Source: Patescibacteria group bacterium
Lineage (GTDB): Bacteria; Patescibacteriota; Minisyncoccia; Phycocordibacterales; PALSA-1337
DNA: 64,000 nucleotides
Direction of reading: 5' to 3'
NCBI GenBank assembly: GCA_028865095.1
Contig: JAGWLA010000001.1
Location: forward strand, 47,244-111,243
In this document: one piece after another, positions 10,481 through 61,266 of the stretch
Layout: each line of letters opens with the position of its first letter
Numbering within the stretch: position 1 is the stretch's first letter
Notes under the pieces: model-generated
Seen by the model: only the letters and a program-made list of their open reading frames with translations
Databases searched by the model: none
What the model was told of the DNA's origin: nothing
Made by a program: the position numbers and the translations under genes

Positions 10481-12646
10481 ATGAACCGCGATTACCCCCT
10501 GGATCGAGTGCGCAACTTCGGCATCATCGCCCACATCGACGCCGGCAAGACGACCACGTCCGAGCGCATCCTCTATTACACCGGCATGATCCACAAGATC
10601 GGCGAGGTGCACGAAGGCGAGACCACCACCGACTGGATGGAGCAAGAGCGCGAGCGCGGCATCACCATCACCGCGGCCGCCATCACGTGCTTCTGGAATC
10701 CCACGTATCTCCGAGGCGTCAAAGGCCCCGACGGCAAGGACGACGTCTCCAAGAAGGTCCGCTTCAACATCATCGATACGCCGGGCCACATCGACTTCAC
10801 GGTCGAGGTCAAGCGCTCTCTGCGCGTCCTCGACGGGGCCGTGGTCGTCTTCGACGGCGTGGCCGGCGTCGAGCCCCAGTCCGAGACCAACTGGCGCTAT
10901 GCCGACGAGGGCAACGTGCCGCGCCTCTGCTTCATCAACAAGATGGACCGCATGGGCGCCTCTTTCGAGCGCTCCTATCAGTCCATCCTCGAGCGCCTCA
11001 ACAAGCGCGCCGTGCGCTTCCAGCTCCCCATCGGCCTCGAAGCCGCCCATGAAGGCGTCGTCGACCTGATGCGCATGAAAGCCTATACCTTCACGGGGGA
11101 AAAGGGCATCGACGTCGTCGAGAGCGAGATCCCTGCCGACATGCTCGAAGACGCCAAGAAGTATCGCGCCGAGATGATCGAGAAGATCGTCGAGACCGAC
11201 GACGCCGCCATGAGCAAGTTCCTGGAAGGGGGAGAGTTCTCTCTCGACGAGCTCAAGGCGCTGACCCGCAAGGCCGTCATCGCCAACAAGCTCTTCCCGG
11301 TCTTTACCGGGTCGGCCCTCAAGAACGTCGGCGTCCAGCTCGTCCTCGACGCCGTCGTCGACTATCTGCCGTCGCCGCTCGATATCCCTCCGGTGCATGG
11401 CATCAACCCGAACACCGGCGAAGAGGTCATCCGCCATGCCAGCGACAGCGAGCCGTTCTGCGCCCTCGCCTTCAAGCTCCAGAACGACCCGTTCGTCGGC
11501 GCCCTGACCTTCTTCCGCGTCTATTCCGGATCGATCGAAGCGGGCACCTATATATATAATTCCTCCACCGGCAAGAAAGAGCGCCTTGGCCGCATCGTCC
11601 GCCTCCAAGCCGACAAGCGCGAGGAGGTCAAGAAGGTCTATGCCGGCGAGATCGCCGCCGCGGTCGGCCTCAAAGACGCCCTGACGTCGCACACGTTCTG
11701 CGATGAAGCCAACCCCATCGTCCTCGAGCAGATCAAGTTCATGGATCCCGTCATATCGCTCCGCGTGGAGCCCAAGACCAAGGCCGACCAGGAGAAGATG
11801 GGCATGGCCCTCCGCAAGCTCTCCATCGAAGACCCGACCTTCCGCATCAGCACCAATGCCGAGACGGGGGAGACCCTCATCTCGGGCATGGGCGAGCTCC
11901 ATCTCGAGATCATGGTGGACCGCATGAAGCGCGAATTCGGCGTCGAGACCACCGTCGGCGCGCCGCAGGTCGCATATCGCGAGACCATCCTCGGAGAGGC
12001 CGAAGCCGAGAACAAATACATCAAGCAGACCGGCGGCAAGGGCCAATACGGCCACGTCCGCCTGACTCTCCGCCCCATGAAGCCGCTCGTCGAAGGCGAG
12101 AAAGTCCCCAAGAACGTCAAGCGGTATGACGACTTCGAATTCGTCGACTCCATCAAGGGAGGCGTCATCCCCCAGGAATTCATCCCCGCCGTCGAGAAGG
12201 GCGTGCACGAAGCCATGGATCGCGGCATCGTGGCCGGCTATCCCATGGTCAATGTCTCTTGCGAGCTGACGTTCGGCTCGTACCATGACGTCGACTCGTC
12301 CGAGATCGCCTACAAGATCGCCGCGTCGCAGGCGTTCCAGGACGCCGCCAAGCGCGCCAAGCCCGTCATCCTCGAGCCCATCATGAAGCTCGAAGTCGTC
12401 TGCCCGGAGAAATACATCGGCGACGTCAACGGCTCCATCGCTTCCAAGCGCGGCCTCATCGAAGGCCAGAACCAGAAAGGCCAGAACGTCTCCATCATCG
12501 CCAAAGTGCCTCTTTCGGAGATGTTCGGCTATACCACGTCGCTCCGTTCGATGACGTCAGGCCAGGGCTCGGCCCAGCTCGAATTCGACCATTACGACGT
12601 CGTGCCCGCCAACGTCGCCCAGGAGATAGCGGAGAAGAGGAAATAA
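10481..12646 (+). CDS. fusA: Elongation factor G
   Basis: AHIDAGKTTTSERIL, NIIDTPGH and the full EF-G domain order. Confidence 0.96.
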   Translation: MNRDYPLDRVRNFGIIAHIDAGKTTTSERILYYTGMIHKIGEVHEGETTTDWMEQERERGITITAAAITCFWNPTYLRGVKGPDGKDDVSKKVRFNIIDTPGHIDFTVEVKRSLRVLDGAVVVFDGVAGVEPQSETNWRYADEGNVPRLCFINKMDRMGASFERSYQSILERLNKRAVRFQLPIGLEAAHEGVVDLMRMKAYTFTGEKGIDVVESEIPADMLEDAKKYRAEMIEKIVETDDAAMSKFLEGGEFSLDELKALTRKAVIANKLFPVFTGSALKNVGVQLVLDAVVDYLPSPLDIPPVHGINPNTGEEVIRHASDSEPFCALAFKLQNDPFVGALTFFRVYSGSIEAGTYIYNSSTGKKERLGRIVRLQADKREEVKKVYAGEIAAAVGLKDALTSHTFCDEANPIVLEQIKFMDPVISLRVEPKTKADQEKMGMALRKLSIEDPTFRISTNAETGETLISGMGELHLEIMVDRMKREFGVETTVGAPQVAYRETILGEAEAENKYIKQTGGKGQYGHVRLTLRPMKPLVEGEKVPKNVKRYDDFEFVDSIKGGVIPQEFIPAVEKGVHEAMDRGIVAGYPMVNVSCELTFGSYHDVDSSEIAYKIAASQAFQDAAKRAKPVILEPIMKLEVVCPEKYIGDVNGSIASKRGLIEGQNQKGQNVSIIAKVPLSEMFGYTTSLRSMTSGQGSAQLEFDHYDVVPANVAQEIAEKRK

Positions 12647-12707
12647 AGGATGTGGATAAGTCCTCTTGCGCCGATCCGTGCAAGAGCTACAATGTCACCA
12701 CTACCCA

Positions 12708-12738
12708 GGCAGCCGGCGTCCATCGGCTGCCTTTCTCC
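12708..12738 (+). terminator. Intrinsic terminator after fusA
   Basis: GGCAGCCG-loop-CGGCTGCC hairpin followed by TTTCTCC. Confidence 0.5.
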
Positions 12739-12742
12739 GTGG

Positions 12743-12751
12743 TGGTATGAT
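12743..12751 (+). promoter_or_regulatory. Extended -10 (TGgTATGAT) for the surface-protein gene P2
   Basis: Directly downstream of the fusA terminator, about 50 nt upstream of ATG 12805. Confidence 0.35.
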
Positions 12752-12804
12752 ATAGGAGATATAGACAGCATTTATTAAAGTACGCTCGTAGCAAGTTCAT
12801 CATA

Positions 12805-15800
12805 ATGAAAAAATCGACCATATCGTTTATCTCGGCATTCGGCATCATCGCCTCTGCGTTCTTTTTGAGTCTTCCTAGCGCGGTTCAGACTGTGAATGCG
12901 CAAAGCGCCGCTTCGACAAGCCCTGTGCTAGCGATCAGACAGGTGCCCGTGACGCACCCTTTGCTTATCGGCGAAAAACAAGCCCTTTTCGCCTCTTTCA
13001 ATCTGAGCGCAGCCTCTTCCTCTAAGGATGCGATGATATTCCTCTTCAAGATGACCATACCGATGTCGTGGAGCTTTGGCGACAAGAACGGTCATGTCAC
13101 ATTGGCAGATGAGATAAGCAGGCTGTCTAACTGCGGCCTCTATTCTGGGGCTACCAAGCTGGCTTCCGGGCCCAATGGGATCGGTACCCCCGATACGGAG
13201 CAGCTTTTCCTCCTCAATTCTGGATCGGGCTTGACCGTGAAAGCCGGTACGCAGACCCAGATAGATTTCCGCTGCGATTTCTCGTCAGCCGCCATACCAT
13301 CTGGAACGACGTACAAATATGAGTGGACTCTGGATCCGAACTACACGGAAGTATGGTCGCCAGTGAACGGGGCACTTGCAGATTTCGGCCGTCCCATATA
13401 CGCGACCACGCAGACACCGACGATATCGACGGCCGAAGGCGCCTCGTCATATCCGGTCGTCGTCAATATCTATCCGCCAAGCAGCAGCAATTCCTATCAG
13501 GTCGGAAACACCGTCAATTTCGTGGCGCAGGCATCGACAATGACCGCCCCGGTCGCTTTCTCTTGGGATTTCGGTGACGGTCAAAGCGCTACTGCGCAGC
13601 AGATAGGACATACCTATTACAAAGCGGGGGCTTACAAGGCGACGGTCACCGCTACGGATAGCGCTGGCCATATCTCCGCGCCGGTAGTTACCGAAGTCAA
13701 TATAACGCAGGCCGATCAGAGCGGATGTTATTCGTTCACTCGCAATCTCGGCCTCGGGTCGACTGGCTATGACGTCGTCCTTCTCCAGAACTGGCTCATC
13801 GCTCACGGGTTCGACATCCAGGCCATATCGAGCGGTCAGCAGCAAAAAGGATATTTCGGTTATGAGACTTCAGCTGCTCTTCAGAGATACCAGGCTAGCA
13901 TAGGGCTCCCTGCCACGGGATTCTTCGGTTCCATGACCATTTCGGCGATCGGCTCTAGCTGCGTCTCGAACCCGACGGCCCAGTCTTCGGGGTCGGCATC
14001 TGGGGCACAGCTGAGCGCCTCGCTCGATTCCTCATCGCCTCTGTCGAGCACGATCCTGATATCCACGGGCAGCCAGACTCAGGATGTGCCTCTCGAGGTC
14101 TTCGACCTCAGATCGAATGGGGCCACCTCGACTCTTCAGGCATTGAAGATCGACATCAACACGACCGGCCAGCCTTTCCCATCCATATTCAGCAATATAA
14201 CCATCAAGATCGGCGGCCGCACCTACACACCCTCTTCCATGGTCTCAGCGCCAGGCGGGACATACGCTTACGCAGCATTCGAGAACCTCGGAGCCTATCT
14301 TCCGACGAACGAATATGTCCCTGTGACCGTCTATGGGACCGTCGCTCAAGATACGAACGGCTTCCTCGACGGGTCGACCGCGACAGCGAGCCTTTTCACT
14401 GCCAGCACGACGGCAGTAGGCGCGAACGCGGCCCCTGTCCCCGTGGCGAGCTACCTCCCGGTCGTCGGCAACCAGATGACGTTCACCTCGAGCGGCCTCA
14501 TGGTGACCAATACAGCGGTCTCTCTCGGATCCCAGTCGCCCTCATGCGGATCGGGGGCCAGCAACGTCCCGTGCACTCAGCCGGTCACGCTCTCCTTCTC
14601 TCTCACCGCGGGGAACTATCCGATGTATATCGCTGCGAGCGCAATGGGCGCGAGCAGCTGCCCCGTAGGATATACATGCTCCTCTGCGAGCCCCTTCGTC
14701 TTCGCTGGTAAGGCAGTGAATGTCGCCCCAGTCTTCGCTGGCTCTGTCGCTAGCCCGGCCCAATTGCCTGGCGATGGGCCCGGCAGCTATCTGATCCCTG
14801 CCGGCTCGACCCGTTCGTTCACATATTACGGCTCTGTGAGCAATGCTAATTTGGCGGGCGGTTCGTATCTGATCGCCGTCACTGGGATCAAGTTCGGGAC
14901 CTCGACATCGAACCTGTTCGTCGGCACGATCACGTCCGGTCTCGGCAACCTCGCTACCATGATCAATCTCCCGGCCGGCAATAATAACGGCGGAGGGAGC
15001 CCGATCTCCACTTCATCGCTGTCTATCGGCCCGAACGACCAGGTCCGCACCTTCACCAAATCCTTCATGGCGACCCCGTCGTCCGGCTCGGTGCTTCTGG
15101 CCATCGCTGGCGATAACAAATATCTGGCCATGATCAACGGCGTCCCTGTCGCCGTCACCAGCGGCGAGACGGGATTCTACAATCCGAGGATCGTCGACGT
15201 CACTTCCCATATCGTCCAGGGGAACAACACCATCCAGGTCATCGCCGATAACATGCCTGACGGCAATGGGGCATTCCCGTGGAGCACCAACCCGGGCGGC
15301 GTCATCTTCAAAGTCGCCGGCGGCTCTTGCACCTCGAGCGTCTATTGCCTGAACGGCACTGTGTACGCGGTCAGCAACGGGACCGAGGGCATCGACAGGG
15401 GCTCGTCTGCCGTCATACCGTCTAACCAGCTCTATCCTGCCTGGACTTCGATTCCTGGCGCAAGCTGGGTCTGGGATTCCAACCTGATGGGTTCGAGCTC
15501 GAGCCTGCAACCGACGATCAGCCTTACGATGGATTCCGGGAGCGTCATACAGGCGGGCCAGCATATCGACTTCACGTACACAGTCTCGCCCGCAGGGAGA
15601 TACGACGTGGTGTACATACTCGTCCCCAGCGCTACTACTCCGAGGAAATCGACCGGTGTCGGTTCGAATTACGACGCTTCGTGGGGCGGATATAACATAG
15701 GCGGCTTTTCGCCGAATTATTCGATCAGTAGTTTTACACCCTATGGCGGAATATATATTCCGAGCGATATCCCTAACGGCACGTACTCTCTGACGGTGTA

Positions 15801-16290
15801 CTTGGCCGCATCCGGAAGCACCACCGGAGGCAGCGAAAAGGTGCCGACTCTTGCAGCTGCTAATTCAGGGATGTTCACTGTCACATCTGGCACGACAGTC
15901 AACCAGGCTTCTGTCACCTGTCCCGGCGGCTATATCTGCGTCGTCAATGGCCAGACGCTGTCATGCCCGTCAGGATACGCCTGCTCCTACGCATCGTATA
16001 ACTGTCCTTCCGGTTACGTCTGCTATACCTATAACAAGCCGTATTCTTCGCCTGCGCCGGCTCCGACCCCGTCGCCTTCGCCTGCGAAGACGGTGACCAC
16101 GGTCACGAACCCGTCTCCGACGCCAACGCCAACGCCTACGCCGACCACGACGACAACTTCGACGAAACCTTCGCCGACGTCGAGCCCGTCAGGCAGCCCG
16201 TATCCGTCGTCGTCCTCGCAATCGCTCGGGAATGCGGCTACCCAGCCGGCATCGGCATGGCAAGCTTTCCTCCAGCTGTTCGGATTCTGA
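12805..16290 (+). CDS. Giant secreted surface protein (P2) with PKD domain, peptidoglycan-binding domain, Thr/Pro/Ser linker and repeated CPxGYxC motifs
   Basis: Signal peptide MKKSTISFISAFGIIASAFFLSLPSAVQTVNA. PKD-like FSWDFGDGQSA...TATDSAGH. PG_binding_1-like LGLGSTGYDVVLLQNWL...GYFGYETSAALQRYQ. TPSPSPAKT...PTPTPTPTPTTTTT linker. Confidence 0.75.
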   Translation: MKKSTISFISAFGIIASAFFLSLPSAVQTVNAQSAASTSPVLAIRQVPVTHPLLIGEKQALFASFNLSAASSSKDAMIFLFKMTIPMSWSFGDKNGHVTLADEISRLSNCGLYSGATKLASGPNGIGTPDTEQLFLLNSGSGLTVKAGTQTQIDFRCDFSSAAIPSGTTYKYEWTLDPNYTEVWSPVNGALADFGRPIYATTQTPTISTAEGASSYPVVVNIYPPSSSNSYQVGNTVNFVAQASTMTAPVAFSWDFGDGQSATAQQIGHTYYKAGAYKATVTATDSAGHISAPVVTEVNITQADQSGCYSFTRNLGLGSTGYDVVLLQNWLIAHGFDIQAISSGQQQKGYFGYETSAALQRYQASIGLPATGFFGSMTISAIGSSCVSNPTAQSSGSASGAQLSASLDSSSPLSSTILISTGSQTQDVPLEVFDLRSNGATSTLQALKIDINTTGQPFPSIFSNITIKIGGRTYTPSSMVSAPGGTYAYAAFENLGAYLPTNEYVPVTVYGTVAQDTNGFLDGSTATASLFTASTTAVGANAAPVPVASYLPVVGNQMTFTSSGLMVTNTAVSLGSQSPSCGSGASNVPCTQPVTLSFSLTAGNYPMYIAASAMGASSCPVGYTCSSASPFVFAGKAVNVAPVFAGSVASPAQLPGDGPGSYLIPAGSTRSFTYYGSVSNANLAGGSYLIAVTGIKFGTSTSNLFVGTITSGLGNLATMINLPAGNNNGGGSPISTSSLSIGPNDQVRTFTKSFMATPSSGSVLLAIAGDNKYLAMINGVPVAVTSGETGFYNPRIVDVTSHIVQGNNTIQVIADNMPDGNGAFPWSTNPGGVIFKVAGGSCTSSVYCLNGTVYAVSNGTEGIDRGSSAVIPSNQLYPAWTSIPGASWVWDSNLMGSSSSLQPTISLTMDSGSVIQAGQHIDFTYTVSPAGRYDVVYILVPSATTPRKSTGVGSNYDASWGGYNIGGFSPNYSISSFTPYGGIYIPSDIPNGTYSLTVYLAASGSTTGGSEKVPTLAAANSGMFTVTSGTTVNQASVTCPGGYICVVNGQTLSCPSGYACSYASYNCPSGYVCYTYNKPYSSPAPAPTPSPSPAKTVTTVTNPSPTPTPTPTPTTTTTSTKPSPTSSPSGSPYPSSSSQSLGNAATQPASAWQAFLQLFGF

Positions 16291-16319
16291 GATCTCGCGC
16301 GCTTGAAGCATGAAGGCAG

Positions 16320-16346
16320 AAACCCCCGTCCATCGGGGGTTTCTCG
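16320..16346 (+). terminator. Intrinsic terminator of P2, lying inside the 5' end of the track ORF 16310
   Basis: AAACCCCCG-TCCAT-CGGGGGTTT hairpin followed by CTCG. Confidence 0.45.
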
Positions 16347-16351
16347 CATGC

Positions 16352-16357
16352 TATAAT
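16352..16357 (+). promoter_or_regulatory. TATAAT -10 box 6 nt upstream of ATG 16364 (leaderless start of the glycosyltransferase operon)
   Basis: GCTATAATCCGGCCATG. Confidence 0.45.
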
Positions 16358-16363
16358 CCGGCC

Positions 16364-17731
16364 ATGAAACGATTCCTGCCGCCGGCGCTGGTGGCGCTGG
16401 CGAGCGCCGTGACCCATCTCCTCTATTTCGGATATCCGGCGCAAGTGGTGTTCGACGAGACGTACTCAGGCCGGTTCCTCGGCGACATCTCCCGAGGGAC
16501 GTTCTTCTTCGACGTCCATCCGCCCCTCGCCAAGCTCATCGTCTACGCGTTCGGCCTCTTGACGGGGGCTTCATACGGGGCCGACGTCGGCTCCATCGGG
16601 GACGCTTTGCCGCATTCCCTCGTCCTCCTGCGGATCGTGCCGCTGGCGTGCGGCATCCTTCTGCCGCTCGCCGTCTACGGCATCGCCCGGAATATCGGCT
16701 TGTCGCGGGTCGCGGCGTCGCTCGCAGGATTTGCGGCGGCGTTCGAGAGCTCGCTCATCGTGCAATCGAGATTCATCCTCTTCGACAGCATGCTCCTCAT
16801 CTTCGGCTTCGGCGCCATCCTTTGCTGGCAGGAATATCGCAAGCGACGGGCAGGGAAGCGGCTGTCAGGAGCCGGAGCTTCTTTCTTGGCGATGTCGGCG
16901 ATCCTCGCCGCGGGCGCGTTCTCCGTCAAATGGACGGGGCTGGCCTTCCCGGCCCTCATCCTGCTCTTCGAGGGGCGCGAGGCTCTCCGCCTTCCCGCGG
17001 GCACGGCCATGAAGCGCGTCCGAGACCGGGTCGCGGCCGCGGCCCGCTCCATCGCGCCGTTCGTCGCCGCATTCGCCGTCGCCGGGGCGGCGGTGTATGC
17101 CGGCTCATTCGCCGCCGAGCTCGCCCTTGCCTCCGGCCCCGGTACAGGGGACCAGTTCGTCAGCAGGAGCTTCCATCAGGAAAGCTTTCCGGCGCAGCTC
17201 GTCGATCTGAACGTCGCCATGTATCAAGAGAACGCCCACGGCATGTCTTCCCATCCGTATCAAAGCCCGTGGTGGAGCTGGCCGCTCATGCTCCGGCCGA
17301 TATTCTACTGGGTCGGCTCGGGCGCATACATATATCTGTTCGGGGACCCGTTCACGTATTGGATGAGCGCGGCCGCCCTTCTGGCCGTCTTCGGGCATTG
17401 CTTGTCGGCGAAGCGCCGGGCGCAGGGCGCGGACGCTGAGCGCAGGGAAGCGGGGATATTCATCGCCATCGGATTCCTGGCGAACTATGCGCCTTTCGTG
17501 CTCATCACCCGCCCGATGTTCCTCTACCATTATCAGGCGGCGCTCGTCTTCGGCATCCTGGCTTTGGCCTGGGCGGCCGACCTCGTCCCGGCGCGCAAGA
17601 AGCTGGCCGTCGCCGCGACGATCGCGGCAGCCTGCCTCGCGGGCTATATCTATTGGAGCCCGCTCATCTACGGGACGCATCTCGATCAGGCCCAGCTCCA
17701 AGCGCGGATGTGGCTGCCGAGCTGGCGATGA
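16364..17731 (+). CDS. pmt: Protein O-mannosyltransferase (GT39 / PMT family)
   Basis: VVFDETYSGRF matches the PMT loop-1 DE motif (VFDEVHFG). Multi-TM. Start moved to ATG 16364 downstream of the terminator and -10 box. Confidence 0.7.
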   Translation: MKRFLPPALVALASAVTHLLYFGYPAQVVFDETYSGRFLGDISRGTFFFDVHPPLAKLIVYAFGLLTGASYGADVGSIGDALPHSLVLLRIVPLACGILLPLAVYGIARNIGLSRVAASLAGFAAAFESSLIVQSRFILFDSMLLIFGFGAILCWQEYRKRRAGKRLSGAGASFLAMSAILAAGAFSVKWTGLAFPALILLFEGREALRLPAGTAMKRVRDRVAAAARSIAPFVAAFAVAGAAVYAGSFAAELALASGPGTGDQFVSRSFHQESFPAQLVDLNVAMYQENAHGMSSHPYQSPWWSWPLMLRPIFYWVGSGAYIYLFGDPFTYWMSAAALLAVFGHCLSAKRRAQGADAERREAGIFIAIGFLANYAPFVLITRPMFLYHYQAALVFGILALAWAADLVPARKKLAVAATIAAACLAGYIYWSPLIYGTHLDQAQLQARMWLPSWR

Positions 17732-18900
17732 CCATGAAGGAGCGCGACGGGCTACAAGTGGCGGCAGTGATCATCCCGACCTATAACGAGGCCGGGGCCA
17801 TCGGCGCCCTCCTCGAAGAGGTCGCCGGGATCGCCTCCTCGGGCAGCCGGTGGCGGATAGAGGTAATCGTCGTCGACGGATGCTCCGAAGACGGGACGGC
17901 CGGCATCGTCGAGGCCGCTGCCGCGCGCGGCGCGCTCCGCATCCATCTGCTGCGCGAGCCGGAGCGCCAGGGCATCGGCGCGGCGTATTGCCGCGGCTTC
18001 CGATATGCCATCGAAGAGGTCGGCGCCGACGCCGTCATCGAGTTCGACGGCGATCTCCAGCATCCCCCGTCGCATATACCGCAGCTCTTGCAGGCTCTCG
18101 ACGACGGAGCCGATTATGTGGCCGCTTCGCGGCGCATGGAAGGGGGCTCCGAGCCTGCAGGCCGCAGCGCATTCCGAAAGGCTCTCACTTCGCTCGGCGG
18201 CGGGGCGGCGCGCTTCATCCTGTTCTTCCCGCATGCCGCGTTCCGGCAGGTGACCGACCCGACCACCGGCCTCAAAGCGACCCGGGTCGCCGGCTTCGCC
18301 GACTCGCTCTGCCTCGACCCGTCGAGGCTCGTCAGCCGCGGCTTCGGCTATAAGCTCCAGTGGCTGTCCGAGACGCTGCGCCTCGGCGCGCGCTATCGGG
18401 AGATACCGCTCCGCTTCCAGGACCGCCGGGCCGGCCGCTCGAAGTTCGCCCCTCCCGTCATCGCCGATATCCTCTGGACGTGCGCCGTCGTCCGGGCTTC
18501 CGACCCGCGGACGAAGCGCTTCATCAGGTATGCCGCAGCGGGGTCGGCCGGCTATATCGTGAATGCCGCCGCTCTCGCCCTCCTGTATCGCCTTACCGGC
18601 ATCGAAGCCCTGTCCTGGGCCCTTTCCGCCGAGGCGGCCATCATCTGCAATTACGCTCTCAACAACGTCTGGGCATTCGGCGACCGCCGCAAGACGGGCT
18701 TTTCCAGCTGGTTCGGCGGGTTCCTGGCCTTCAATCTCGCCTCTCTCGGAGCCATCGCCATCGAAGGCGTGTTCGGGCCCCTTCTGACGTCGCTTGTCGG
18801 CCCGTCCTATCGCCAGCTCGTCTTGGCTGCGGTCGTCCTCTTCATGGTCGTGCCGTATAACTGGCTCATGTATAGCCGCTTGATATGGAAACAGCGATGA
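17728..18900 (+). CDS. Polyprenol-phosphate mannose synthase (GT2, Ppm1/Dpm1-like) fused to a C-terminal GtrA-like membrane domain
   Basis: IIPTYNE, VIEFDGDLQHPP (compare Dpm1 DADLSHHP) and a C-terminal GtrA-like 4-TM segment (YAAAGSAGYIVNAAALALLY...ICNYALNNVWAF). ATGA overlap with the pmt stop. Confidence 0.8.
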   Translation: MTMKERDGLQVAAVIIPTYNEAGAIGALLEEVAGIASSGSRWRIEVIVVDGCSEDGTAGIVEAAAARGALRIHLLREPERQGIGAAYCRGFRYAIEEVGADAVIEFDGDLQHPPSHIPQLLQALDDGADYVAASRRMEGGSEPAGRSAFRKALTSLGGGAARFILFFPHAAFRQVTDPTTGLKATRVAGFADSLCLDPSRLVSRGFGYKLQWLSETLRLGARYREIPLRFQDRRAGRSKFAPPVIADILWTCAVVRASDPRTKRFIRYAAAGSAGYIVNAAALALLYRLTGIEALSWALSAEAAIICNYALNNVWAFGDRRKTGFSSWFGGFLAFNLASLGAIAIEGVFGPLLTSLVGPSYRQLVLAAVVLFMVVPYNWLMYSRLIWKQR

Positions 18901-20105
18901 ACAAGGCTCGGAAGAGCGCGCCGCTCCTTCTCGCTCTGGCGGGGACTGTCGCCGCTCTCGTCCCGCAATGCCTGATGCGCGGGAGCCAGGCCGCATATAT
19001 GTTCTTCTATGACAAGCTGACGACGTATCCCGGCGACCTCTGGAATTTCTTCGCCAACTACCTGGCCCACGGCCTGCGCTACCCGCCAGAATATCCGGCC
19101 GGCTTGCGCTTCGTCTACGAAGCCGCCGGCTTGTATCGGATCCACAGCTATGAGGCCTTCTTCGCTTTGAATGCAGCCGTCATCGGCGCTTTCGCGGTTG
19201 CGACGACATGGCTCCTCTATCTGATCTTGCGCGAGAGGGCAAGAAGGGAGGGCGGCCGGATCGAGGCTTCGCGCCTGTGGCTTTTCTGGATCCTGGCGCC
19301 GTCGTTCCTGTTCTATGCCGTCTATAACTACGACATCCCGGTCGTCTTCCTCGCGGTCTTAGGCGTCTTCTTTGCTCTGAAGGGGCGTCCGTATGGGGCC
19401 GTGACGGCTCTCGCGGCAGGGACGGTGGTCAAAGTCTTCCCGATCTTCATCCTTCCCGCGCTCATTTGGATGTCGCCGCGCCATCGCCGGCTGCCGCTCG
19501 CGGCGCTCTTCATCGCCATCGTCGTGGCCCTGAATCTCCCGTATGCCCTGACGGACTTCCATTCATGGATATATCCGTATGTCTGGCAGATATCGTCGAA
19601 TCTCACGACCAGCCCGGCGCAGGGGACTTATTGGTGGATCCTCTACCCGCTGACGGGGAAGCTCACCGGCTGGGTCAGCTTAGGGGCTCTCGGCGCGCTC
19701 TATCTCGCCGCTCTTTGGGGCATGTCGGGGCGGCGCTGGCCGGCGGAAGGGGGGTCGGACCGGGCATTCCTGGGCGCCGCTCTCATCGGGATCTCGCTCT
19801 TCCTGCTCACCGACCGCATATATTCGCCGCAGTATGACCTGTATCTGCTCCCGTTCCTGGTCCTGTCTCCTTTCGTCGTCGACAAGAGGCTCTTCTATGC
19901 CGTAGAGATCCCCAATCTGCTGCTGGTGCTTCTCTTGTTCTATCTGCGCGAGCACTATGTCGCGCTGCAGATGCTCTCTTTTATACGCTACGCAGCGCTG
20001 GCGGGCTTGTCTGTCAAGATGTACCGCGATACAAAGGGCAACCTCTGTCAACGGGAATATGGCTCGAGCGGGCCTGCCTTAGAGGGGACACGGTCTCGCC
20101 TGTAA
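18885..20105 (+). CDS. GT-C fold membrane glycosyl (mannosyl) transferase, DUF2029/GT87-like
   Basis: About 10 TM helices and a YSPQYDLYLLPFL motif. Overlaps the preceding gene by 16 nt. Confidence 0.5.
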   Translation: METAMNKARKSAPLLLALAGTVAALVPQCLMRGSQAAYMFFYDKLTTYPGDLWNFFANYLAHGLRYPPEYPAGLRFVYEAAGLYRIHSYEAFFALNAAVIGAFAVATTWLLYLILRERARREGGRIEASRLWLFWILAPSFLFYAVYNYDIPVVFLAVLGVFFALKGRPYGAVTALAAGTVVKVFPIFILPALIWMSPRHRRLPLAALFIAIVVALNLPYALTDFHSWIYPYVWQISSNLTTSPAQGTYWWILYPLTGKLTGWVSLGALGALYLAALWGMSGRRWPAEGGSDRAFLGAALIGISLFLLTDRIYSPQYDLYLLPFLVLSPFVVDKRLFYAVEIPNLLLVLLLFYLREHYVALQMLSFIRYAALAGLSVKMYRDTKGNLCQREYGSSGPALEGTRSRL

Positions 20106-20135
20106 AGGCCTCTTTACATGCAGAGGGCTAACTAC

Positions 20136-20156
20136 AGGGCTATTTGCCCTATTTTA
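20136..20156 (+). terminator. Hairpin plus T-rich tract after the GT-C gene
   Basis: AGGGC-TATTT-GCCCT followed by ATTTTATG...TTTTGCTTTTGTTTTTTT. Confidence 0.4.
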
Positions 20157-20211
20157 TGCACCCATCATTTTGCTTTTGTTTTTTTAGGCTAGCTATATAC
20201 TTTGTGGCGTA

Positions 20212-23200
20212 TCATGATCCTCTTGGCACAAAATCATCGGAGCATGAGCCTCATGCGTTTGGCGTATGTATCAGTGGCGGCGGTGCTCCTGTTTTTTGTT
20301 TCGGCGCAGATGGCTCGCGCCGACACGTCTTCCGGCCTCATAGGATGGTGGCAGTTCGATGAAGGGTCGGGCAGCACCACCGCCGATTCCAGCGGCTTCG
20401 GCAACGACCTGACGGTCTCCGGCCCTGCATGGGTCTCGGGCCAATCGGGGCAGGCGCTCTCGTTCAACGGCACAAGCGATGTCCTCGATCTCGGGAAGCC
20501 GATCCTTCCCGCGCTGCCGTTGGCGAGCTCGACGACGTTCTCGGCGTGGGTCAAGACCGTCGACCCTGTGCATTGGGCTGGCATCGTGTCGCAGTATAAG
20601 ACTCTCGGCGGCGCATATATCATCCTCCGGGTCAGGCTCGATAACGGCGCCGCCGATTTCACCTTCAAGGATGTCAACGCGAACGAGGTCGAAGCGGTCG
20701 GCACGACCGACCTGCGGGACGGTTCCTGGCATCTCGTCACGGGCGTGATCGACCGTTCGAACAGGCTGGCGCATGTCTACGTGGATGGCGCCGAAGAGGG
20801 GACGCCCGCGCCCGACACGACCAACATCGACATGTCGTTCCCATCGCCGAACAGGGACCTCCAGATCGGCGCCAACCAGACGGGTTTCTTCTCCGGGTCG
20901 ATCGACGATGTCAGGGTGTACGATCGCGCCCTGTCGGCCACGGATGTCGCCGAGCTCCATGCCAATGCCGGCCCTCCTATGCTCACGCTGCAGTCCGCCT
21001 CGCCGGTCAGCTCGACCACGGCGACCCTCAACGCCACGATCATCTCGACCGGCAGCAGCACGGTGACGGTCCGCGGCTTCGAATATGGGGCGACGACGAC
21101 ATATGGAAGCCTCCTCTCGGAGACCGGGAGCTACGGGACCGGGTCGTTCGCTCTGGGCGCGTCGGCGCTGGCGTGCGGCACGACCTATTACACCCGCGCC
21201 TTCGCGACGAACCAGTACGGCACCGCTTCGAGCACGGGCGGCAGCTTCACGACCTCCGCGTGCCCGATGACGCTGCCGGCTGTCGAGAGCTCGTCGACCG
21301 TCTCTGACATCACCCAGTCGTCGGCCACCCTCAACGGCGCCATCGTCTCGAGCGGGAACGGCACGATCACTCAGCACGGGTTCGTATATGGCACGGCTTC
21401 GAACCTCTCGGGCACGGTCGCCACGACGACGGGCGGCCAGTTCGTCGGCACGGGCCCCTTCATATCGTCCTCGGCTCGGCAGATCGCCGGCCTCTCATGC
21501 AACACGACGTACTATTTCGAGGCGTATGCCACTAATGCCATGGGCACGAGCTACGGCTCGATCCTGTCGTTCCAGACCGGGGCATGCTCATCCGGGGGCT
21601 ATTCCGTGTATTACGTCGACCAGGCGTCCGGCAATGACGCGAACGCATGCTCGATAACGTCGAAATGCGCCACCATCGGAGAGGGCATATCGAAGCTTCA
21701 TGCGGGCGACACGCTCGTCATAAGCTCGGGCACGTATCATGAATATATCAACAATTCCATCCCGTCCGGCATCAATTGGGATTCGCCGACGACCGTCGAG
21801 GCCGCTCCGGGCGCGACGGTCGTGCTGGCGCCGACCCTCGCGCAGAACCCGTACCGCGCTCTCTATTTCAGCGGGGCCGGGGTATCGTATATCGTCGTCA
21901 GCGGGCTTACGCTCGATGCGACGAACGTGCAATATGAAGCCGTGAAGGTGACGACGGGGGCCAACCATGTGCGCCTTTCCAATATGGAGATAAAGAATGC
22001 CCCGACTATGGGCATCCTCATGACCGATGACGGTACCTCGTACAACGAGGTCATCGATTCGTATATCCATGACAACGGGAATGATCCGGGCGGCAACGGC
22101 CTCCTGCACGAGATCTATCTTTCGACCAATGCGAATATCATCGACGGCAACACCCTCGATTGCGGGGCGCTCAATCCGGGAGGGAAGGGCATACAGCTCT
22201 ATGGTTCGACGGGCATGAATGACAATATATTCCGCAACAATGTCATCAGAGACTGCTCGACGGGCATAGGCGTATTCGGAGGCACCGGCAACCTTGTCTA
22301 TAACAACATCCTCTACCACCTTCTGATCGGGGTCCAGCTCCAGGGATACGAGGCGCTCGATGGTGCCGGGGTGTATAACAATACGATCTATGACATGTAC
22401 CAGACGGTGGATGGCGGCGGCGTCGGCATCAATGCGGTGAATTCAGGCCTCGGCACGAGCCATGTCAACATCGAGAACAATATCGTGTACCTTTCGTCTT
22501 CGACGCCGGTCATCAATAACAGCGTCGGAGGGGTCACTTCCAACAATCTGACCTCTAACCCCGGCTTCACCGATCCGGCCGCCCATGATTTCAGCATCTC
22601 TTCGACCAGCCCCGCCGTCGATGCGGGCGTGCCGGTGAACGGCGTCGCCGTCGACATCCTTGGCGTGAACCGTCCGCAAGGCTCCGCATACGACATCGGC
22701 GCATATGAATATTTCAGCTCCTCGAACGTGACGGCTCCTACCGTCGGCCAGTCGACGATAACGAGCATCACTGAGTCGTCGGCGTATCTGACGTCCTCTA
22801 TATCGTCGATCGGGGGCAGCGCTGCCACGGCGAGAGGGTTCGTGTTCGGCAGCACGACCGTGTATGAGGCCGGCACAAGCACGGAAGCGGGAAGCTTCCA
22901 GGCCGGCGGGTTCTCTGTCGCATTGAACGGCCTTGCATGCGGCGCTTCGTATCATGTGCGCGCATACGCGGCGAATGTCGCCGGCGTTTCATATGGCTCT
23001 GACGCGACATTCACGACGAGCCAGTGCGCTTCTCCCGATTCCTCGACGACTGACCAGACAGGCGGCGGCTCGACAGGCGGCGGCGGAGGAGGAGGCGGAG
23101 GAGGCGGCGGCTCGACAGGCGGCGGAGGCGGAGGAGGCGCTGCGTACAACGCGCCTACGGCGACGGTCCTTTCCCCTACGTCGGCGCTCGTCTCCTGGAA

Positions 23201-23984
23201 TACGTACATGCCTTCTTACGGCAAAGTCTATTACGGACGATCTGCGGGGTCATACACGGCCGCAACTTCATCCGCAGAGATCGTCACTGCCCATTCCTTC
23301 ATCTTGTCCGGCCTCGTCCCGAATACGCTGTACCACTACTACATATCCTCTACCGTTCCGGGCGGCGCTATAAGCGCTTCGCCCGACCATGCTTTCACGA
23401 CGGCGACCGGTACAGCGGCCGGGGCGGCGCTCCCCGCGCCCGTACCCGGCTGTCCTGCCGGAATGGTCTGTACGCCTATACCGGGATATTCCGCAGCGTC
23501 AGAGCAGAATTTCACCCGCGATCTCACGATCGGTTCCCGGGGAAGCGACGTGAGCGCTCTTCAGGATATCCTCATCTCGGCGGGCCATCTGGCGCAGAAC
23601 CTCAAGACCGGCTACTTCGGGCCTCTTACGCAGTCGGCCCTGGCAAAATATCAGTCCGCGAACGGCATCGTGCCGGCATCGGGGTACTTCGGGCCGATCA
23701 CCCGAGGCTTCTTGGGAGGGGCATCGGCAGCTTCGCCCGCTCCGGCGCGGTCGGCATCGCCGTCTTTCTCGAGAGATCTCACTGTCGGTTCGAGAGGCTC
23801 AGACGTCACCATTCTCCAGGCCATCCTTATAGGACAAGGGTTCTTGGAATCCCGTTATGCTACCGGCTACTTTGGGCCTCTTACGCAGTCGGCCCTGGCA
23901 AAATATCAGTCCGCGAACGGCATCGTGCCGGCATCGGGGTACTTCGGGCCGATCACCAGGAATCGGCTGACATCGTCGCATTGA
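20212..23984 (+). CDS. Giant secreted surface protein (P3): LamG-like lectin domain, FN3 repeats, right-handed beta-helix, poly-Gly linker, two tandem peptidoglycan-binding domains
   Basis: Signal peptide MRLAYVSVAAVLLFFVSAQMARA. LamG-like GLIGWWQFDEGSG...DDVRVYDRALS. Beta-helix repeats (NNVIRDCSTGIGVFGG...). GGGSTGGGGGGGGGGGGSTGGGGGGG linker. Two PG-binding repeats at the C-terminus. Start could be 20202 (GTG), 20212 or 20241. Confidence 0.75.
23611..23955 (+). repeat. Two copies of a 93-bp near-identical direct repeat (1 mismatch) about 250 bp apart, duplicating the PG-binding domain
   Basis: GGCTACTTCGGGCCTCTTACGCAGTCGGCCCTGGCAAAATATCAGTCCGCGAACGGCATCGTGCCGGCATCGGGGTACTTCGGGCCGATCACC occurs at 23611-23703 and 23863-23955. 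Confidence 0.8.
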
Positions 23985-24159: not shown

Positions 24160-25347
24160 ATGGCAGCAGAATTCAATCGCACCAAGCCCCACGTCAACGT
24201 GGGCACCATCGGCCACATCGACCACGGCAAGTCCACTTTGACCGCCGCGCTCGTAGCCGTCCAGTCCAAGAAGGGCATGGCCAAGGAGAAGGCCTATGCC
24301 GAGATCACCAAGGGAGGCACCGTCCGCGACGCCACCAAGACCGTCACCATCTCTCTGTCACACGTCGAGTACGAGTCCGATAAGAGGCACTATGCCCACA
24401 TCGACGCTCCTGGCCACGCCGACTACATAAAGAACATGATCACCGGCGCCGCCCAGATGGACGGAGCCATCCTCGTCGTGTCCGCTACCGACGGCGTCAT
24501 GCCCCAGACCCGCGAGCACGTCCTCCTGGCCTACCAGGTCGGCGTCCCCAAGATCGTCGTCTTCCTCAACAAGTGCGACCTCGTTCCGGAGAAGGACCTT
24601 ATCGACCTGGTCGAGGAGGAAGTGCGTGAGCTCCTCACCAAGAACCACTATGACGGCAAAGGCGCCCCGGTCATCCGCGGCTCCGCTACCGGCGCTATCG
24701 AAGGCAAGGCCGAGTGGGTCGCCAAGATCGACGAGCTCATGAACGCCCTCGACACCTATATCCCCGACCCGGTCCGCGAGACCGACAAGCCGTTCCTGAT
24801 GCCGATCGAGGACATCTTCTCGATCGAAGGCCGCGGCACCGTCGTCACCGGCCGCATCGAGCGCGGCCAGGTCAAGGTCGGCGAGGAAGTCGAGATCGTC
24901 GGCTTCAAGGACACGACCAAGACCACCATCACCGGCATCGAGATGTTCAATAAGTCCCTGAAAGAGGGCATCGCGGGCGACAACGCCGGCTTGCTCCTTC
25001 GCGGCACCGCCAAGGACGACGTGTCCCGCGGCCAGGTCCTGGCCAAGCCGGGCTCCGTCAAGCCGCACACCGAGTTCGAGGCCGAGGTCTACATCCTCAA
25101 GAAGGAGGAGGGAGGCCGCCACACCCCGTTCTTCACCGGCTATAAGCCCCAGTTCTATATCCGCACGACCGACGTCACCGGCGAGGTGACCCTCCCCGAG
25201 AAGGTGGAGATGGTCATGCCGGGAGACACGGTGACCTTCAAGGTCAAGCTCGTCGCCCCGGTCGCCCTTGAAGACAAGCAGCGCTTCGCCGTCCGCGAAG
25301 GAGGCAAGACCGTCGGCGCCGGCGTCGTCACCAAGGTCGTCGCATAG
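24160..25347 (+). CDS. tuf: Elongation factor Tu
   Basis: [25 protein letters not shown]. Confidence 0.97.
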
Positions 25348-56068: not shown

Positions 56069-56079
56069 CAACGACAAAA

Positions 56080-61256: not shown

Positions 61257-61266
61257 CAGCATAGAG

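Follow-up and report, generated by a model that had tools for sequence, protein, structure and literature searches.

A predicted protein O-mannosylation operon beside giant surface proteins in the fusA-tuf gap of a Patescibacteria genome

Among the closest described systems is the actinobacterial pathway (Rv1002c in M. tuberculosis, SCO3154 in S. coelicolor and Cg1014 in C. glutamicum), in which mannose is passed from a lipid-linked donor to Ser/Thr residues of Sec substrates, followed by a short elongation. Its members are the GT2 synthase Ppm1, the GT39 enzyme Pmt, and PimE or another elongating GT87 enzyme, and the genes encoding them are, as far as is known, dispersed. A review of the actinobacterial set lists a GT2 Ppm, a hypothesised flippase, a GT39 PMT and a GT87 PimE for elongation, and describes the mannosylation of Pro/Thr/Ser-type linkers by the PMTs (PMC12757957). 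A non-actinobacterial GT39 (Cbes_1864) is found in Caldicellulosiruptor bescii next to celA, likewise beside a large multidomain secreted protein. This enzyme glycosylates the Pro/Thr linkers of CelA and protects them from cleavage, and the consulted part of the paper mentions neither a synthase nor a GT87 gene in the celA cluster (PMC6151902).

The same three enzyme classes have been found in the MAG of an uncultivated, ultrasmall member of the Patescibacteria (CPR), in the window (the whole 64-kb stretch of DNA that was analysed). The predicted PMT of the window shares 100% identity with an NCBI protein assigned to a Patescibacteria group bacterium MAG. Judging from sequence, this is the actinobacterial Ppm/Pmt/PimE pathway compacted into a single operon. 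Whereas the actinobacterial genes are dispersed, the three genes of the window overlap one another, and candidate substrates are encoded next door. The synthase differs from actinobacterial Ppm1 in belonging to the archaeal type III, with a GtrA-like membrane domain fused to it. The operon also differs from the C. bescii cluster, as far as that cluster has been described in the source cited above, in including a synthase and a GT87-like gene and in having wall-associated surface proteins as candidate substrates instead of cellulases.

Layout of the fusA-tuf gap

The locus contains the following features.

8123 to 10393, + strand: secreted or membrane-anchored S/T-rich protein, 756 aa, directly upstream of fusA
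10481 to 12646, + strand: fusA (EF-G), left border of the island; Pfam GTP_EFTU, EFG_III, EFG_IV and EFG_C
12805 to 16290, + strand: giant surface protein 1, 1161 aa, with signal peptide, PKD and PG_binding_1; main candidate acceptor
16318 to 16344, + strand: GC-rich hairpin of 11 bp between the giant 1 and PMT genes
16364 to 17731, + strand: GT39 protein O-mannosyltransferase (PMT), 455 aa, bacterial type without MIR domain; DE motif D31-E32
17728 to 18900, + strand: predicted polyprenyl-phosphate mannose synthase, 390 aa, type-III-DPMS-like
18897 to 20105, + strand: GT-C membrane glycosyltransferase, 402 aa, marginal GT87/DUF2029; alternative start 18885
20202 to 23984, + strand: giant surface protein 2, about 1243-1260 aa; start probably 20244 or 20253
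24160 to 25347, + strand: tuf (EF-Tu), right border of the island, by Pfam

The ORF listing and translations confirmed the five open reading frames that the preliminary description had placed between fusA and tuf, all on the plus strand, and Pfam matches confirmed both borders. The S10 operon comes after tuf. By their predicted families, the three central genes should form an operon for lipid-linked mannose synthesis and Ser/Thr mannosylation of secreted proteins. The ATGA overlap of the PMT and synthase genes at 17728-17731 is real. A 16-nt overlap between the synthase and third genes, also described earlier, exists only if ATG 18885 is used; the in-frame ATG 18897, which overlaps the synthase stop codon (18898-18900) as another ATGA, is the more likely start. 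As read from the DNA, the ATGA overlaps at 17728 and 18897 show translational coupling of the three genes.

The segment 16291-16366, which includes the hairpin, has a folding dG of -30.5 kcal/mol (z -3.4). A TATAAT sequence follows the hairpin at 16352-16357, 6 nt upstream of ATG 16364, so transcription of the operon may start from a promoter of its own and give a leaderless mRNA. A longer frame for the PMT gene (16310-17731) was ruled out; the NCBI model of 455 aa and the hairpin favour the start at 16364.

The three predicted enzymes

The first protein carries the motif VVFDETYSGRF and matches the Pfam families PF02366 (PMT, 4.5e-31) and PF16192 (PMT_4TMC, 2.1e-44). Yeast Pmt1 was found at 6e-42 in a single-sequence search, and a profile of 30 relatives matched only fungal Pmt1, Pmt2 and Pmt4 in the PDB (2.9e-94 to 7.7e-68), with no match to ArnT even at E<=10. 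The preliminary description had proposed a PMT-type enzyme and named ArnT/GT83 as the competing assignment; these searches support GT39 and not ArnT/GT83. Residues D31-E32, H52-P53-P54, R90, R136 and D141 are invariant in the 30 relatives and align with D77-E78, H98-P99-P100, R138, R184 and D189 of Pmt1, respectively. Position 129 is Ser in the window, whereas Asn is present in at least 90% of the relatives and in Pmt1. Like other bacterial PMTs, the enzyme has no MIR domain, but it differs from actinobacterial Pmt in scoring 44.7 bits against the NCBIfam equivalog cutoff of 800, so that an orthology-level transfer of function is unjustified.

The synthase consists of a GT2 catalytic domain (PF00535, 3e-24) and a fused four-helix GtrA-like membrane domain (PF04138, GtrA/DPMS_TM, 3.2e-13), and the motif DGDLQHPP noted earlier is present. 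Pyrococcus furiosus dolichyl-phosphate mannose synthase (DPMS), a type-III enzyme (5mlz, 5mm1, 9ep0), is matched over its full length including the membrane domain, at 4e-27 with the single sequence and 1.4e-56 with the family profile. ArnC (4e-17) and GtrB (7.5e-14) match this profile over the N-terminal ~130-150 residues only. The AF2 model (pLDDT 91.1) can be superposed on 5mlz at TM 0.70/0.76, whereas ArnC and GtrB give about 0.5/0.6. The GtrB alternative named in the preliminary description was thus checked by profile and by superposition, and both favour DPMS. Residues D107-G-D109-L-Q111-H112-P-P, S134-R135, R150, S155, K209, N279 and N308 are present and conserved; these positions define type-III DPMS (PMC12992685). 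Equivalents of the P. furiosus DxDxQHPP motif, of the Dol-P phosphate ligands Arg117, Arg131, Ser135 and Lys178, and of Asn248 and Asn277 in the polar pocket are conserved. Differences are an identity of about 23%, DGD in place of DAD, and Met373 (with Phe372 adjacent) at the position of the gating Phe338. In addition, the host is a bacterium not known to be thermophilic, and a bacterial polyprenyl phosphate presumably takes the place of dolichyl phosphate as the carrier. The synthase reaches none of the NCBIfam equivalog cutoffs, with weak matches that include glucosyl, GalNAc and Ara4FN transferases, and for GT2 polyprenyl-P glycosyltransferases sugar specificity cannot be read securely from sequence.

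The fusion with GtrA, which the preliminary description had called notable, is real but not unusual, because type-III DPMS is a known architecture from which the Pfam domain takes its name, and the fusion occurs in at least 120 Patescibacteria clusters at E<1e-99. In 2026, type III DPMS was described as a trait of hyperthermophilic archaea only (PMC12992685); in contrast, the sequences indicate that this architecture is widespread in CPR.

The third protein contains the motif YSPQYDLYLLPFL. Its GT-C assignment was upheld by a confident structural model (pLDDT 91.7), while membership of GT87 (PF09594, formerly DUF2029) is marginal at 1.8e-6 and 28.3 bits (cutoff 25); GT87 is also matched by 30 of 32 homologues (best 3.7e-13). 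The nearest folds are ALG3, GPI-mannosyltransferase I, PimE and ALG6. Lipid-P-mannose-dependent mannosyltransferases make up most of the best fold matches, which use lipid-linked glycan acceptors, not glycoproteins. PimE, a polyprenyl-P-mannose-dependent alpha-1,2-mannosyltransferase (9dm5), shares with the third enzyme the GT-C fold and the Pfam GT87 match, as well as acidic residues that are invariant in the first extracytoplasmic loop. The third gene occurs in some PMT loci only (L001, L007 and the P0007 contig) and is absent from others.

The surface proteins and their conservation

Both giants have predicted Sec-type signal peptides and are S/T-rich, as described before, with S+T at 25.2% in giant 1 and 22.5% in giant 2, while fusA, tuf and the three enzymes have 9-12%. 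In giant 1, PKD (aa 226-297) and PG_binding_1 (aa 321-382) are followed by a C-terminal module:

15919 to 16023, + strand: three CPxGYxC mini-repeats, at spacings of 45 and 39 nt
16030 to 16224, + strand: Pro/Thr/Ser-rich stalk, with up to 35 of 40 residues P, T or S
16252 to 16287, + strand: conserved C-terminal tail SAWQAFLQLFGF, recognised by comparison with relatives

Giant 2, for which ATG 20244 or 20253 is a more likely start than TTG 20202, carries, besides its signal peptide, a LamG-like domain, fn3-like repeats, a choice-of-anchor Q beta-helix and a linker rich in Gly; it also has a single CPAGMVC motif and, at the C-terminal end, two PG_binding_1 domains. The 756-aa protein upstream of fusA (S+T 25.5%, one CPAGYIC motif at its C-terminal end) is a third secreted S/T-rich protein at the locus, beyond the two described earlier, and a possible additional glycosylation substrate. 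Neither giant 2 nor the 756-aa protein has a Pro/Thr/Ser stalk, and giant 2 also has no tail.

A PMT lies in the fusA-tuf gap of 12 other Patescibacteria genomes, almost always adjoining secreted S/T-rich proteins of 600-1500 aa, and 11 of the 13 fusA-tuf PMTs group in a single clade by neighbour joining. The folded domains of the PMT-adjacent giants vary by genome, whereas the stalk and the short conserved tail recur in most. Three CPxGYxC repeats with identical spacing precede the stalk in L001, L007, L013 and L026, as in giant 1. The tails are of two types, SAWQAFLQLFGF-like or ..VFYxxGDxxDxxF; their count is descriptive only, because the regexes were built from the same sequences. The repeat region has no significant match in Pfam or NCBIfam, and the module as a whole is absent from both. 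P/T/S-rich ORFs, defined by at least one 40-residue stretch with at least 28 P, T or S residues, are over-represented at distances of up to 5 kb from a PMT (23/588 against 2/403, Fisher p=6e-4). In L002 the PMT is outside the fusA-tuf gap and still beside two giant proteins; no giant is encoded beside many of the more distantly related Patescibacteria PMTs.

The earlier proposal of the giants as targets gains independent support because the synteny is conserved and Pro/Thr/Ser stalks are present. At the flanks of the operon, a stalk-type candidate acceptor region is seen by sequence in giant 1 only. The stalk of giant 1 is proposed as the O-mannosylation acceptor region. Linkers of similar composition are glycosylated by the C. 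bescii GT39 (PMC6151902).

Proposed pathway and alternatives

The reviewed actinobacterial set has matching classes and a matching logic (PMC12757957), and the gene set described earlier for polyprenol-P-mannose synthesis and Ser/Thr transfer is supported by the profile and structure checks of family. The cytoplasmic GT2 domain (DxD...QHPP) would transfer mannose from GDP-mannose to polyprenyl phosphate, and the GtrA-like domain may aid transit of the lipid-linked sugar to the external side of the membrane. The PMT would then move mannose to Ser/Thr of proteins leaving the Sec translocon, and the GT-C/GT87-like enzyme, proposed to elongate the glycan, would add further mannose from the same donor, as PimE does in mycobacteria. 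Preferred acceptors would be the adjacent giants, foremost the stalk of giant 1, which glycosylation could stiffen and protect from proteases. It is considered probable that 16364-20105 is one operon for lipid-linked protein O-mannosylation with the adjacent giants as preferred acceptors.

The operon could instead serve many Sec-exported proteins, with the giants nearby only through the clade's insertion of surface genes into the ribosomal-protein region. Actinobacterial PMT substrates are many and dispersed (PMC12757957), the S10/spc cluster of the window is also broken up by unrelated genes and a further secreted PKD/fn3 protein (40021-41841), a Pro/Ser linker is present in a separate membrane protein (42667-43773), and a giant neighbour is missing at most more distant PMT loci. 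This general role is nevertheless rather unlikely, given the pairing of PMT and stalk ORF in 12 genomes despite changing folded domains, the enrichment near PMTs, and the two giants in L002. A stronger contender concerns the third enzyme, which might mannosylate a lipid or cell-wall glycopolymer, much as PimE acts on phosphatidylinositol mannosides, and share only the lipid donor with the PMT. Its close folds all have lipid-linked acceptors and its gene is patchy among PMT loci, but it is coupled to the synthase, and elongation of protein O-mannose is reported for mycobacterial PimE itself and thought to be carried out by GT87 members in other actinobacteria (PMC12757957). De novo lipid synthesis is also generally thought missing in Patescibacteria, which are reported to have no fatty-acid and isoprenoid pathways (PMC5220378). 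A lipid or polymer acceptor is considered less likely than elongation of protein-bound mannose.

A sugar other than mannose, carried for example as polyprenyl-P-glucose or polyprenyl-P-galactose and moved to protein by the PMT-family enzyme, would fit the sub-cutoff NCBIfam scores of the synthase and the absence of GDP-mannose synthesis genes from the 64-kb window. It is improbable, as only a mannose synthase comes close to the synthase of the window among solved structures, ArnC and GtrB being ~40 orders of magnitude weaker, the type-III motif residues are conserved, and most top folds for the third enzyme use Dol-P-Man. To our knowledge, all characterised GT39 enzymes also use a polyprenyl-P-mannose or dolichyl-P-mannose donor. 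Action of the PMT-like enzyme on an acceptor that is not a protein but a lipid, a teichoic-acid-like polymer or peptidoglycan, in the manner of ArnT/GT83 or YfhO-type GT-C enzymes in GtrA/GtrB-type systems, is very improbable. The combination of GT2, GtrA-like domain and GT-C formally resembles three-component glycosylation systems, and PF02366 alone is not known to tell GT39 from GT83; against this stand the PMT_4TMC match, the silence of ArnT in the profile search, the conserved DE motif and R138 equivalent, and the far weaker GtrB and ArnC matches of the synthase.

The enzymes of the O-mannosylation operon belong to a known pathway. The arrangement of operon and candidate targets is conserved among relatives and had no earlier study in CPR; new here is the PMT in the fusA-tuf gap of 12 other Patescibacteria genomes, almost always beside S/T-rich proteins, most of them with the stalk and tail.

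Layout of the island between fusA and tuf

The genes for the protein O-mannosyltransferase (PMT), the synthase and the third enzyme are located between fusA and tuf, both of which were identified by Pfam. As had been claimed in the preliminary description, this gap contains five open reading frames (ORFs). All are on the forward strand. The G+C content of the window is ~62%.

Features of the island and its borders, in window coordinates
8123-10393, +, third secreted or membrane-anchored Ser/Thr-rich protein, 756 aa, 25.5% Ser+Thr, directly upstream of fusA
10481-12646, fusA (Pfam), one border of the island
12805-23984, +, five co-directional ORFs, from the translations
12805-16290, +, giant 1, 1161 aa
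15892-16287 (aa 1030-1161), C-terminal module of giant 1: three CPxGYxC repeats, a Pro/Thr/Ser-rich stalk and a short tail
16364-17731, +, PMT, 455 aa
17728-18900, +, synthase, 390 aa
18897-20105, +, third enzyme, 402 aa
20202-23984, +, giant 2
24160-25347, tuf (Pfam), other border of the island

The three sequence motifs that had been quoted for the enzymes are all found in the translations, and the ATGA overlap between the PMT and synthase genes is present in the sequence. The 16-nt overlap described for the third gene, with a start at 18885, is less plausible; the in-frame ATG at 18897, which overlaps the synthase stop in another ATGA, is the more plausible start. For the PMT gene, a start at 16310 was rejected, because reading from there would cross a stable hairpin and because the NCBI model is 455 aa long. 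This 11-bp GC-rich hairpin lies between giant 1 and the PMT gene (16318-16344; dG -30.5 kcal/mol, z -3.4, for 16291-16366) and is followed by TATAAT at 16352-16357, 6 nt before the PMT ATG. The presence of both elements just before the PMT start suggests that transcription of the enzyme operon may start at a promoter of its own and give a leaderless mRNA. The promoter scan called no sigma-70 -35 element before the PMT gene, and a simple promoter/terminator scan gave no enrichment over shuffles and is uninformative.

Both proteins flanking the enzymes are, as described, secreted and Ser/Thr-rich: they carry Sec-type signal peptides and consist of 25.2% and 22.5% Ser+Thr, compared with 9-12% in the products of fusA, tuf and the three enzyme genes. 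The 756-aa protein contains an fn3/Pur_ac_phosph_N-like domain and a C-terminal CPAGYIC. The genes rpsL and rpsG, which usually precede fusA, are absent upstream of fusA in the window and present in the related locus L004. Beyond tuf, the S10/spc ribosomal-protein cluster (25380-48760) is interrupted repeatedly: a HlyD-ABC-MacB set (28627-32144) and an Orn/DAP decarboxylase gene (32582-33898) lie between L2 and S19, and a 606-aa secreted PKD/fn3 protein (40021-41841, minus strand, 28.7% Ser+Thr) is encoded between L5 and SecY. The window also contains a tmRNA gene (55706-56071, +; Rfam RF00023, 106 bits), for which ARAGORN gave no call in the same window, and a tRNA-Ile with anticodon TAT (UAU; 61183-61257, +). 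This tRNA is uncommon in bacteria and would decode AUA directly, without a lysidine-modified CAU tRNA.

Families and folds of the three enzymes

The PMT matches the Pfam families PMT (PF02366; 4.5e-31, 108.7 bits vs a cutoff of 22.7) and PMT_4TMC (PF16192; 2.1e-44, 151.9 bits vs a cutoff of 32.4), and one or both domains are present in all 120 of its homologues among the matches listed. A single-sequence search of the PDB returned solely protein O-mannosyltransferases, with yeast Pmt1 as the best match (6.3e-42) and with the alignment divided into two stretches, one on each side of the missing MIR domain. A profile built from 30 relatives matched Pmt4, Pmt1 and Pmt2 at 2.9e-94 to 7.7e-68. The residues D31-E32 in the first extracytoplasmic loop align with D77-E78 of Pmt1, H52-P53-P54 with H98-P99-P100 and R90 with R138, and all are invariant in the 30 relatives; residue 129 is Ser, where the relatives and Pmt1 have Asn. 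An ArnT/GT83 identity had been the alternative for this protein. ArnT matched neither the single sequence nor, even at E<=10, the profile in the PDB, and ArnC is only a weak and N-terminal match of the partner synthase; the ArnT reading was therefore rejected. Based on the PMT-only PDB matches and the invariant catalytic residues, the sequence places the enzyme in GT39 and not in GT83, as originally proposed.

No Pfam match to the MIR domain (PF02815) is present in the PMT, which at 455 aa is shorter than the ~760-820 aa of fungal PMTs. The MIR domain in loop 5 marks the eukaryotic PMT1/2/4 subfamilies only and its absence is normal for bacterial PMTs, so that its lack excludes only the eukaryotic subfamilies. 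With 44.7 bits (cutoff 800), the score for the NCBIfam equivalog of actinobacterial Pmt (NF058602) corresponds by sequence to membership of the same family and not to an orthologue-level match. The residues studied by mutagenesis in the Streptomyces coelicolor PMT (D113, H159, D233 and R510) have, by their spacings, no unambiguous counterpart in the window PMT. The 80 best relatives among species-representative genomes all belong to Patescibacteria or unclassified MAGs, and none to another phylum.

The synthase combines Glycos_transf_2 (GT2; 3e-24) with GtrA_DPMS_TM (3.2e-13). Its best PDB match is the dolichyl-phosphate mannose synthase of Pyrococcus furiosus (PfDPMS, 5mlz), aligned over residues 12-375 with the membrane domain included (4.4e-27 by single sequence, 1.4e-56 by family profile). 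A GtrB-type glucosyltransferase acting on O-antigen, as in the three-component Gtr system, was the alternative to be weighed. GtrB (5ekp; 2e-4 by single sequence, 7.5e-14 by profile) and ArnC (~4e-17 by profile) match the N-terminal GT2 core only. The AF2 model (pLDDT 91.1) has a four-helix membrane domain as in the PfDPMS fold; Foldseek aligns it with 5mlz at E 3.9e-21 and TM 0.70/0.76 over 384 columns, and with ArnC and GtrB at TM ~0.5/0.6 (GtrB 0.42-0.49 against 0.70 for 5mlz). The GtrB identity was rejected, being far weaker by sequence, profile and TM, and the Dpm1-type assignment of the preliminary description holds.

Type-III DPMS enzymes have recently been defined by specific residues (2026; PMC12992685), among them the motif 89-DADxQHPP-96, in which x is L, F or Y (PMC12992685). 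Through the HMMER alignment with PfDPMS, this motif corresponds to D107-G-D-L-Q-H-P-P114 of the synthase, with Gly replacing Ala; the family consensus is DGDFQHPP. The two Asp residues, the Gln and the His do not vary among 39 Patescibacteria homologues, and at least 90% conserve the Pro-Pro. The phosphate of Dol-P is bound in PfDPMS by Arg117 (SRY), Arg131, Ser135 and Lys178 (PMC12992685).

Counterparts of PfDPMS residues in the synthase, from the same alignment, with conservation in the family
Arg117: R135 (S134-R135), invariant
Arg131: R150, invariant
Ser135: S155, majority residue
Lys178: K209, at least 90%
Asn248, polar pocket: N279 (membrane domain), invariant
Asn277, polar pocket: N308 (membrane domain), invariant
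Phe338, gating: M373, adjacent F372 being the majority residue; alignment uncertain at the end of the match

The membrane domain of PfDPMS is dispensable for catalysis and able to hold flipped Dol-P-Man, and the enzyme has been proposed to moonlight as a translocator (PMC12992685). The fusion of the synthase with a GtrA-like domain, previously considered notable, is not: following the type-III definition in PMC12992685, it is a described architecture. The Pfam domain name reflects it, and at E<1e-99 at least 120 Patescibacteria clusters with a source name were found, all with both domains. Type III was concluded to be a trait of hyperthermophilic archaea (PMC12992685); the distribution of these predicted type-III enzymes in Patescibacteria contradicts that conclusion, which is mildly new.

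The third enzyme has a marginal Pfam match to GT87 (PF09594, formerly DUF2029; 1.8e-6, 28.3 bits vs a cutoff of 25), and 30 of its 32 homologues match the same family (best 3.7e-13). Single-sequence and family-profile searches of the PDB gave no match, and related structures were reached by fold search. The confident AF2 model (pLDDT 91.7, pTM 0.90) clearly has a predicted GT-C fold similar to that of PimE, in agreement with the GT-C-like transferase first suggested. D47 and E65, located in the first extracytoplasmic loop, are invariant in the homologues; GT-C enzymes carry a catalytic acid in the first loop.

Fold matches of the third enzyme, with match scores
ALG3 (Dol-P-Man): 27.6
GPI mannosyltransferase I (Dol-P-Man): 26.6
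PIG-U / Gab1: 26.5
ALG6 (Dol-P-Glc): 23.5
PimE: 19.9
ALG12, ArnT, Pmt4: 14-15

All three enzymes are 100% identical to NCBI proteins of a Patescibacteria MAG. Each enzyme belongs to a known family and has already been named by automated annotation (in NCBI 'phospholipid carrier-dependent glycosyltransferase', 'glycosyltransferase' and 'DUF2029 domain-containing protein', respectively), and the enzymology is expected. The parts worth pursuing are the conserved island and the module of stalk and tail.

Conserved neighbourhoods and the C-terminal module of the giant proteins

The neighbourhoods of PMT genes in relatives were studied by exact-protein look-ups, a scan of 80 species-representative loci and tblastn mapping; the survey covers these 80 loci and a few metagenome contigs, many of them short. 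The PMT gene is present in the fusA-tuf gap of 12 further genomes (L001, L004, L005, L007, L010, L011, L013, L019, L020, L026, L031 and L086), with 35-59% identity to the window PMT; in L020 and L086 its orientation is opposite to that of fusA and tuf. In a quick neighbour-joining distance tree of 84 PMTs, without support values, 11 of the 13 gap-located PMTs fall in one clade. Two further members of this clade lie outside the gap: in L006 a GT2 gene is the sole enzyme partner beside the PMT gene, and in L002 the PMT-synthase pair comes after two giant proteins and before type IV pilus genes. The latter locus (12566-21344) continues immediately after the pair with PilM, PilB/MshE, PilT, PilC and a prepilin, and pilins are therefore another possible substrate class there. 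Neither an integrase nor a transposase gene was seen around the island, whose location is clade-conserved; a mobile-element origin is disfavoured.

A GtrA fusion of the synthase occurs in L001, L002, L027, L028 and the P0007 contig, and the synthase is unfused in L006, L011 and L018. The loci with a GT87-like gene are L001, L007 and the P0007 contig. The constant neighbour of the PMT gene is one or more Ser/Thr-rich ORFs (20-28%) of 600-1500 aa. These mostly contain a Pro/Thr/Ser stretch just before the C-terminus, with 24-38 of 40 residues of this kind. ORFs with at least 28 of 40 Pro/Thr/Ser residues are enriched within 5 kb of the PMT gene (23/588 vs 2/403, Fisher p=6e-4), in a count of which some members are spurious because the ORFs, of at least 200 aa, were taken from stop to stop. 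Most of the stalk-bearing ORFs end in a conserved tail of 12-20 aa, which comes in two flavours, ..(A/S)(I/V)W(Q/N)(A/S)(I/F)...(L/F)G(F/L), with giant 1 ending in SAWQAFLQLFGF, and ..VFY(A/S)(I/L)GD(L/F)(L/V)D(S/A)(V/L)F; both patterns were derived from the same sequences on which they were counted. Ahead of the stalk, giant 1 and proteins of four relatives contain CPxGYxC three times, at the same intervals of 45 and 39 nt.

The same C-terminal module in relatives
L001, 1-813
L007, 1413-5849
L013, 1611-3641
L026, 12048-14480

In all six reading frames of the window, CPxGYxC occurs six times, always within the three big secreted ORFs. Searches of Pfam and NCBIfam gave no significant match for the C-terminal module of giant 1. 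At E<=10, mucin, Thr-rich regions of S-layer glycoproteins and granulin/lustrin Cys repeats appeared; since these matches are only compositional and sub-threshold, known sorting signals and domains were rejected and the C-terminus was left without assignment. Used as a single-sequence query against 1.84 billion representatives, the module retrieved 27 proteins at E<=1e-3, of which ~20 have the same layout. It may be a sorting or anchoring signal specific to surface proteins of Patescibacteria.

The folded domains of the PMT-adjacent giants vary by genome (PKD, TIG, LamG, beta-helix and PG_binding_1) and the stalk and tail persist in most. Bacterial GT39 enzymes are known to glycosylate stretches rich in Pro, Thr and Ser, such as the linkers of Cellulomonas cellulases (PMC12757957). 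These points indicate the stalk as the probable acceptor. The preliminary description had named both giants as candidate targets. This holds best for giant 1, based on its stalk, its conserved neighbourhood and the Pro/Thr/Ser enrichment near the PMT gene; giant 2 ends instead in two PG_binding_1 domains (Pfam). Giant 2 and the 756-aa protein are Ser/Thr-rich without stalk and tail and are weaker acceptor candidates. Away from the operon, a predicted membrane protein of 368 aa (42667-43773, +) contains a Pro/Ser-rich linker, ..SPSPTPSPSPTPSPSP.., with 31 of 40 Pro/Thr/Ser residues, and is a possible further acceptor of O-glycosylation.

Proposed pathway and meaning for the patescibacterial envelope

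In Actinobacteria, the donor comes from a GT2 polyprenyl-P-mannose synthase and is translocated by a hypothesised flippase (PMC12757957). A GT39 PMT puts the first mannose on Sec or Tat substrates (PMC12757957), and PimE, a GT87 enzyme, or other members of GT87 then extend the chains to 1-3 mannoses (PMC12757957). The window operon has the same enzyme set (GT2, GT39 and GT87-like). It differs from the actinobacterial pathway in that one translationally coupled operon encodes all three enzymes, with a synthase that belongs to the archaeal type-III kind; in addition, the operon adjoins candidate substrates with an undescribed C-terminal module, and the island holds a clade-conserved position in the fusA-tuf gap. 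In Caldicellulosiruptor bescii a GT39 gene also adjoins celA, and its deletion abolishes glycosylation and raises CelA cleavage (PMC6151902).

From its family and motifs, the synthase would convert GDP-mannose and polyprenyl-P to polyprenyl-P-mannose at the cytoplasmic face, sugar and carrier both being presumed. The donor would then reach the outer leaflet, with the fused membrane domain of the synthase as a possible translocator, an idea borrowed from PfDPMS. The PMT, with its family and catalytic residues, would transfer mannose to Ser/Thr of the emerging stalk, an acceptor suggested by synteny and composition. By the precedent of PimE and the gene coupling, the third enzyme would lengthen the mannose chain; that it acts instead on a lipid or wall acceptor is a less likely but serious alternative. 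The likely outcome is a rigid, protease-resistant and wall-spanning glycosylated stalk on peptidoglycan-associated surface proteins. As a whole, this reading of the island, with donor synthesis, flipping, stalk mannosylation and extension, is probable. Genes for GDP-mannose synthesis were not found among the ORFs scanned in the window; a stretch of 64 kb is too small a part of a genome for this to be informative. A stronger joint claim is doubtful: that the clade has fixed a dedicated surface-glycoprotein system between fusA and tuf, in which the C-terminal module, with its tail being amphipathic, serves as a novel signal for sorting or anchoring and needs the PMT to O-mannosylate the stalk for its maturation, the synthase is its own flippase, and the giants are possibly S-layer-like or host-contact components of the envelope of these episymbionts.

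In the open-access literature, no paper linking PMT or GT39 to Patescibacteria/CPR was found, which is weak evidence of novelty. A Parcubacteria genome paper merely speculates on a 'glycosylated S-layer' (PMC5220378), and the formation and structure of the patescibacterial envelope "remain unclear" (PMC5220378). Surface proteins matter in these organisms because they live attached to host cells, and the locus provides a testable envelope hypothesis with a defined enzyme set, candidate substrates and an acceptor region. Should the arrangement simply be a generic glycosylation system, it would be one more, ordinary instance of a known pathway. The archaeal type-III synthase, with its possible built-in flippase, appears widespread in bacteria not known as thermophilic, which bears on the idea that it is an adaptation to hyperthermophily, and the module of stalk and tail is a possible new signal of surface proteins. 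If true, the proposal would bring a large uncultivated radiation into the range of protein O-mannosylation, which among bacteria has been studied almost exclusively in Actinobacteria.
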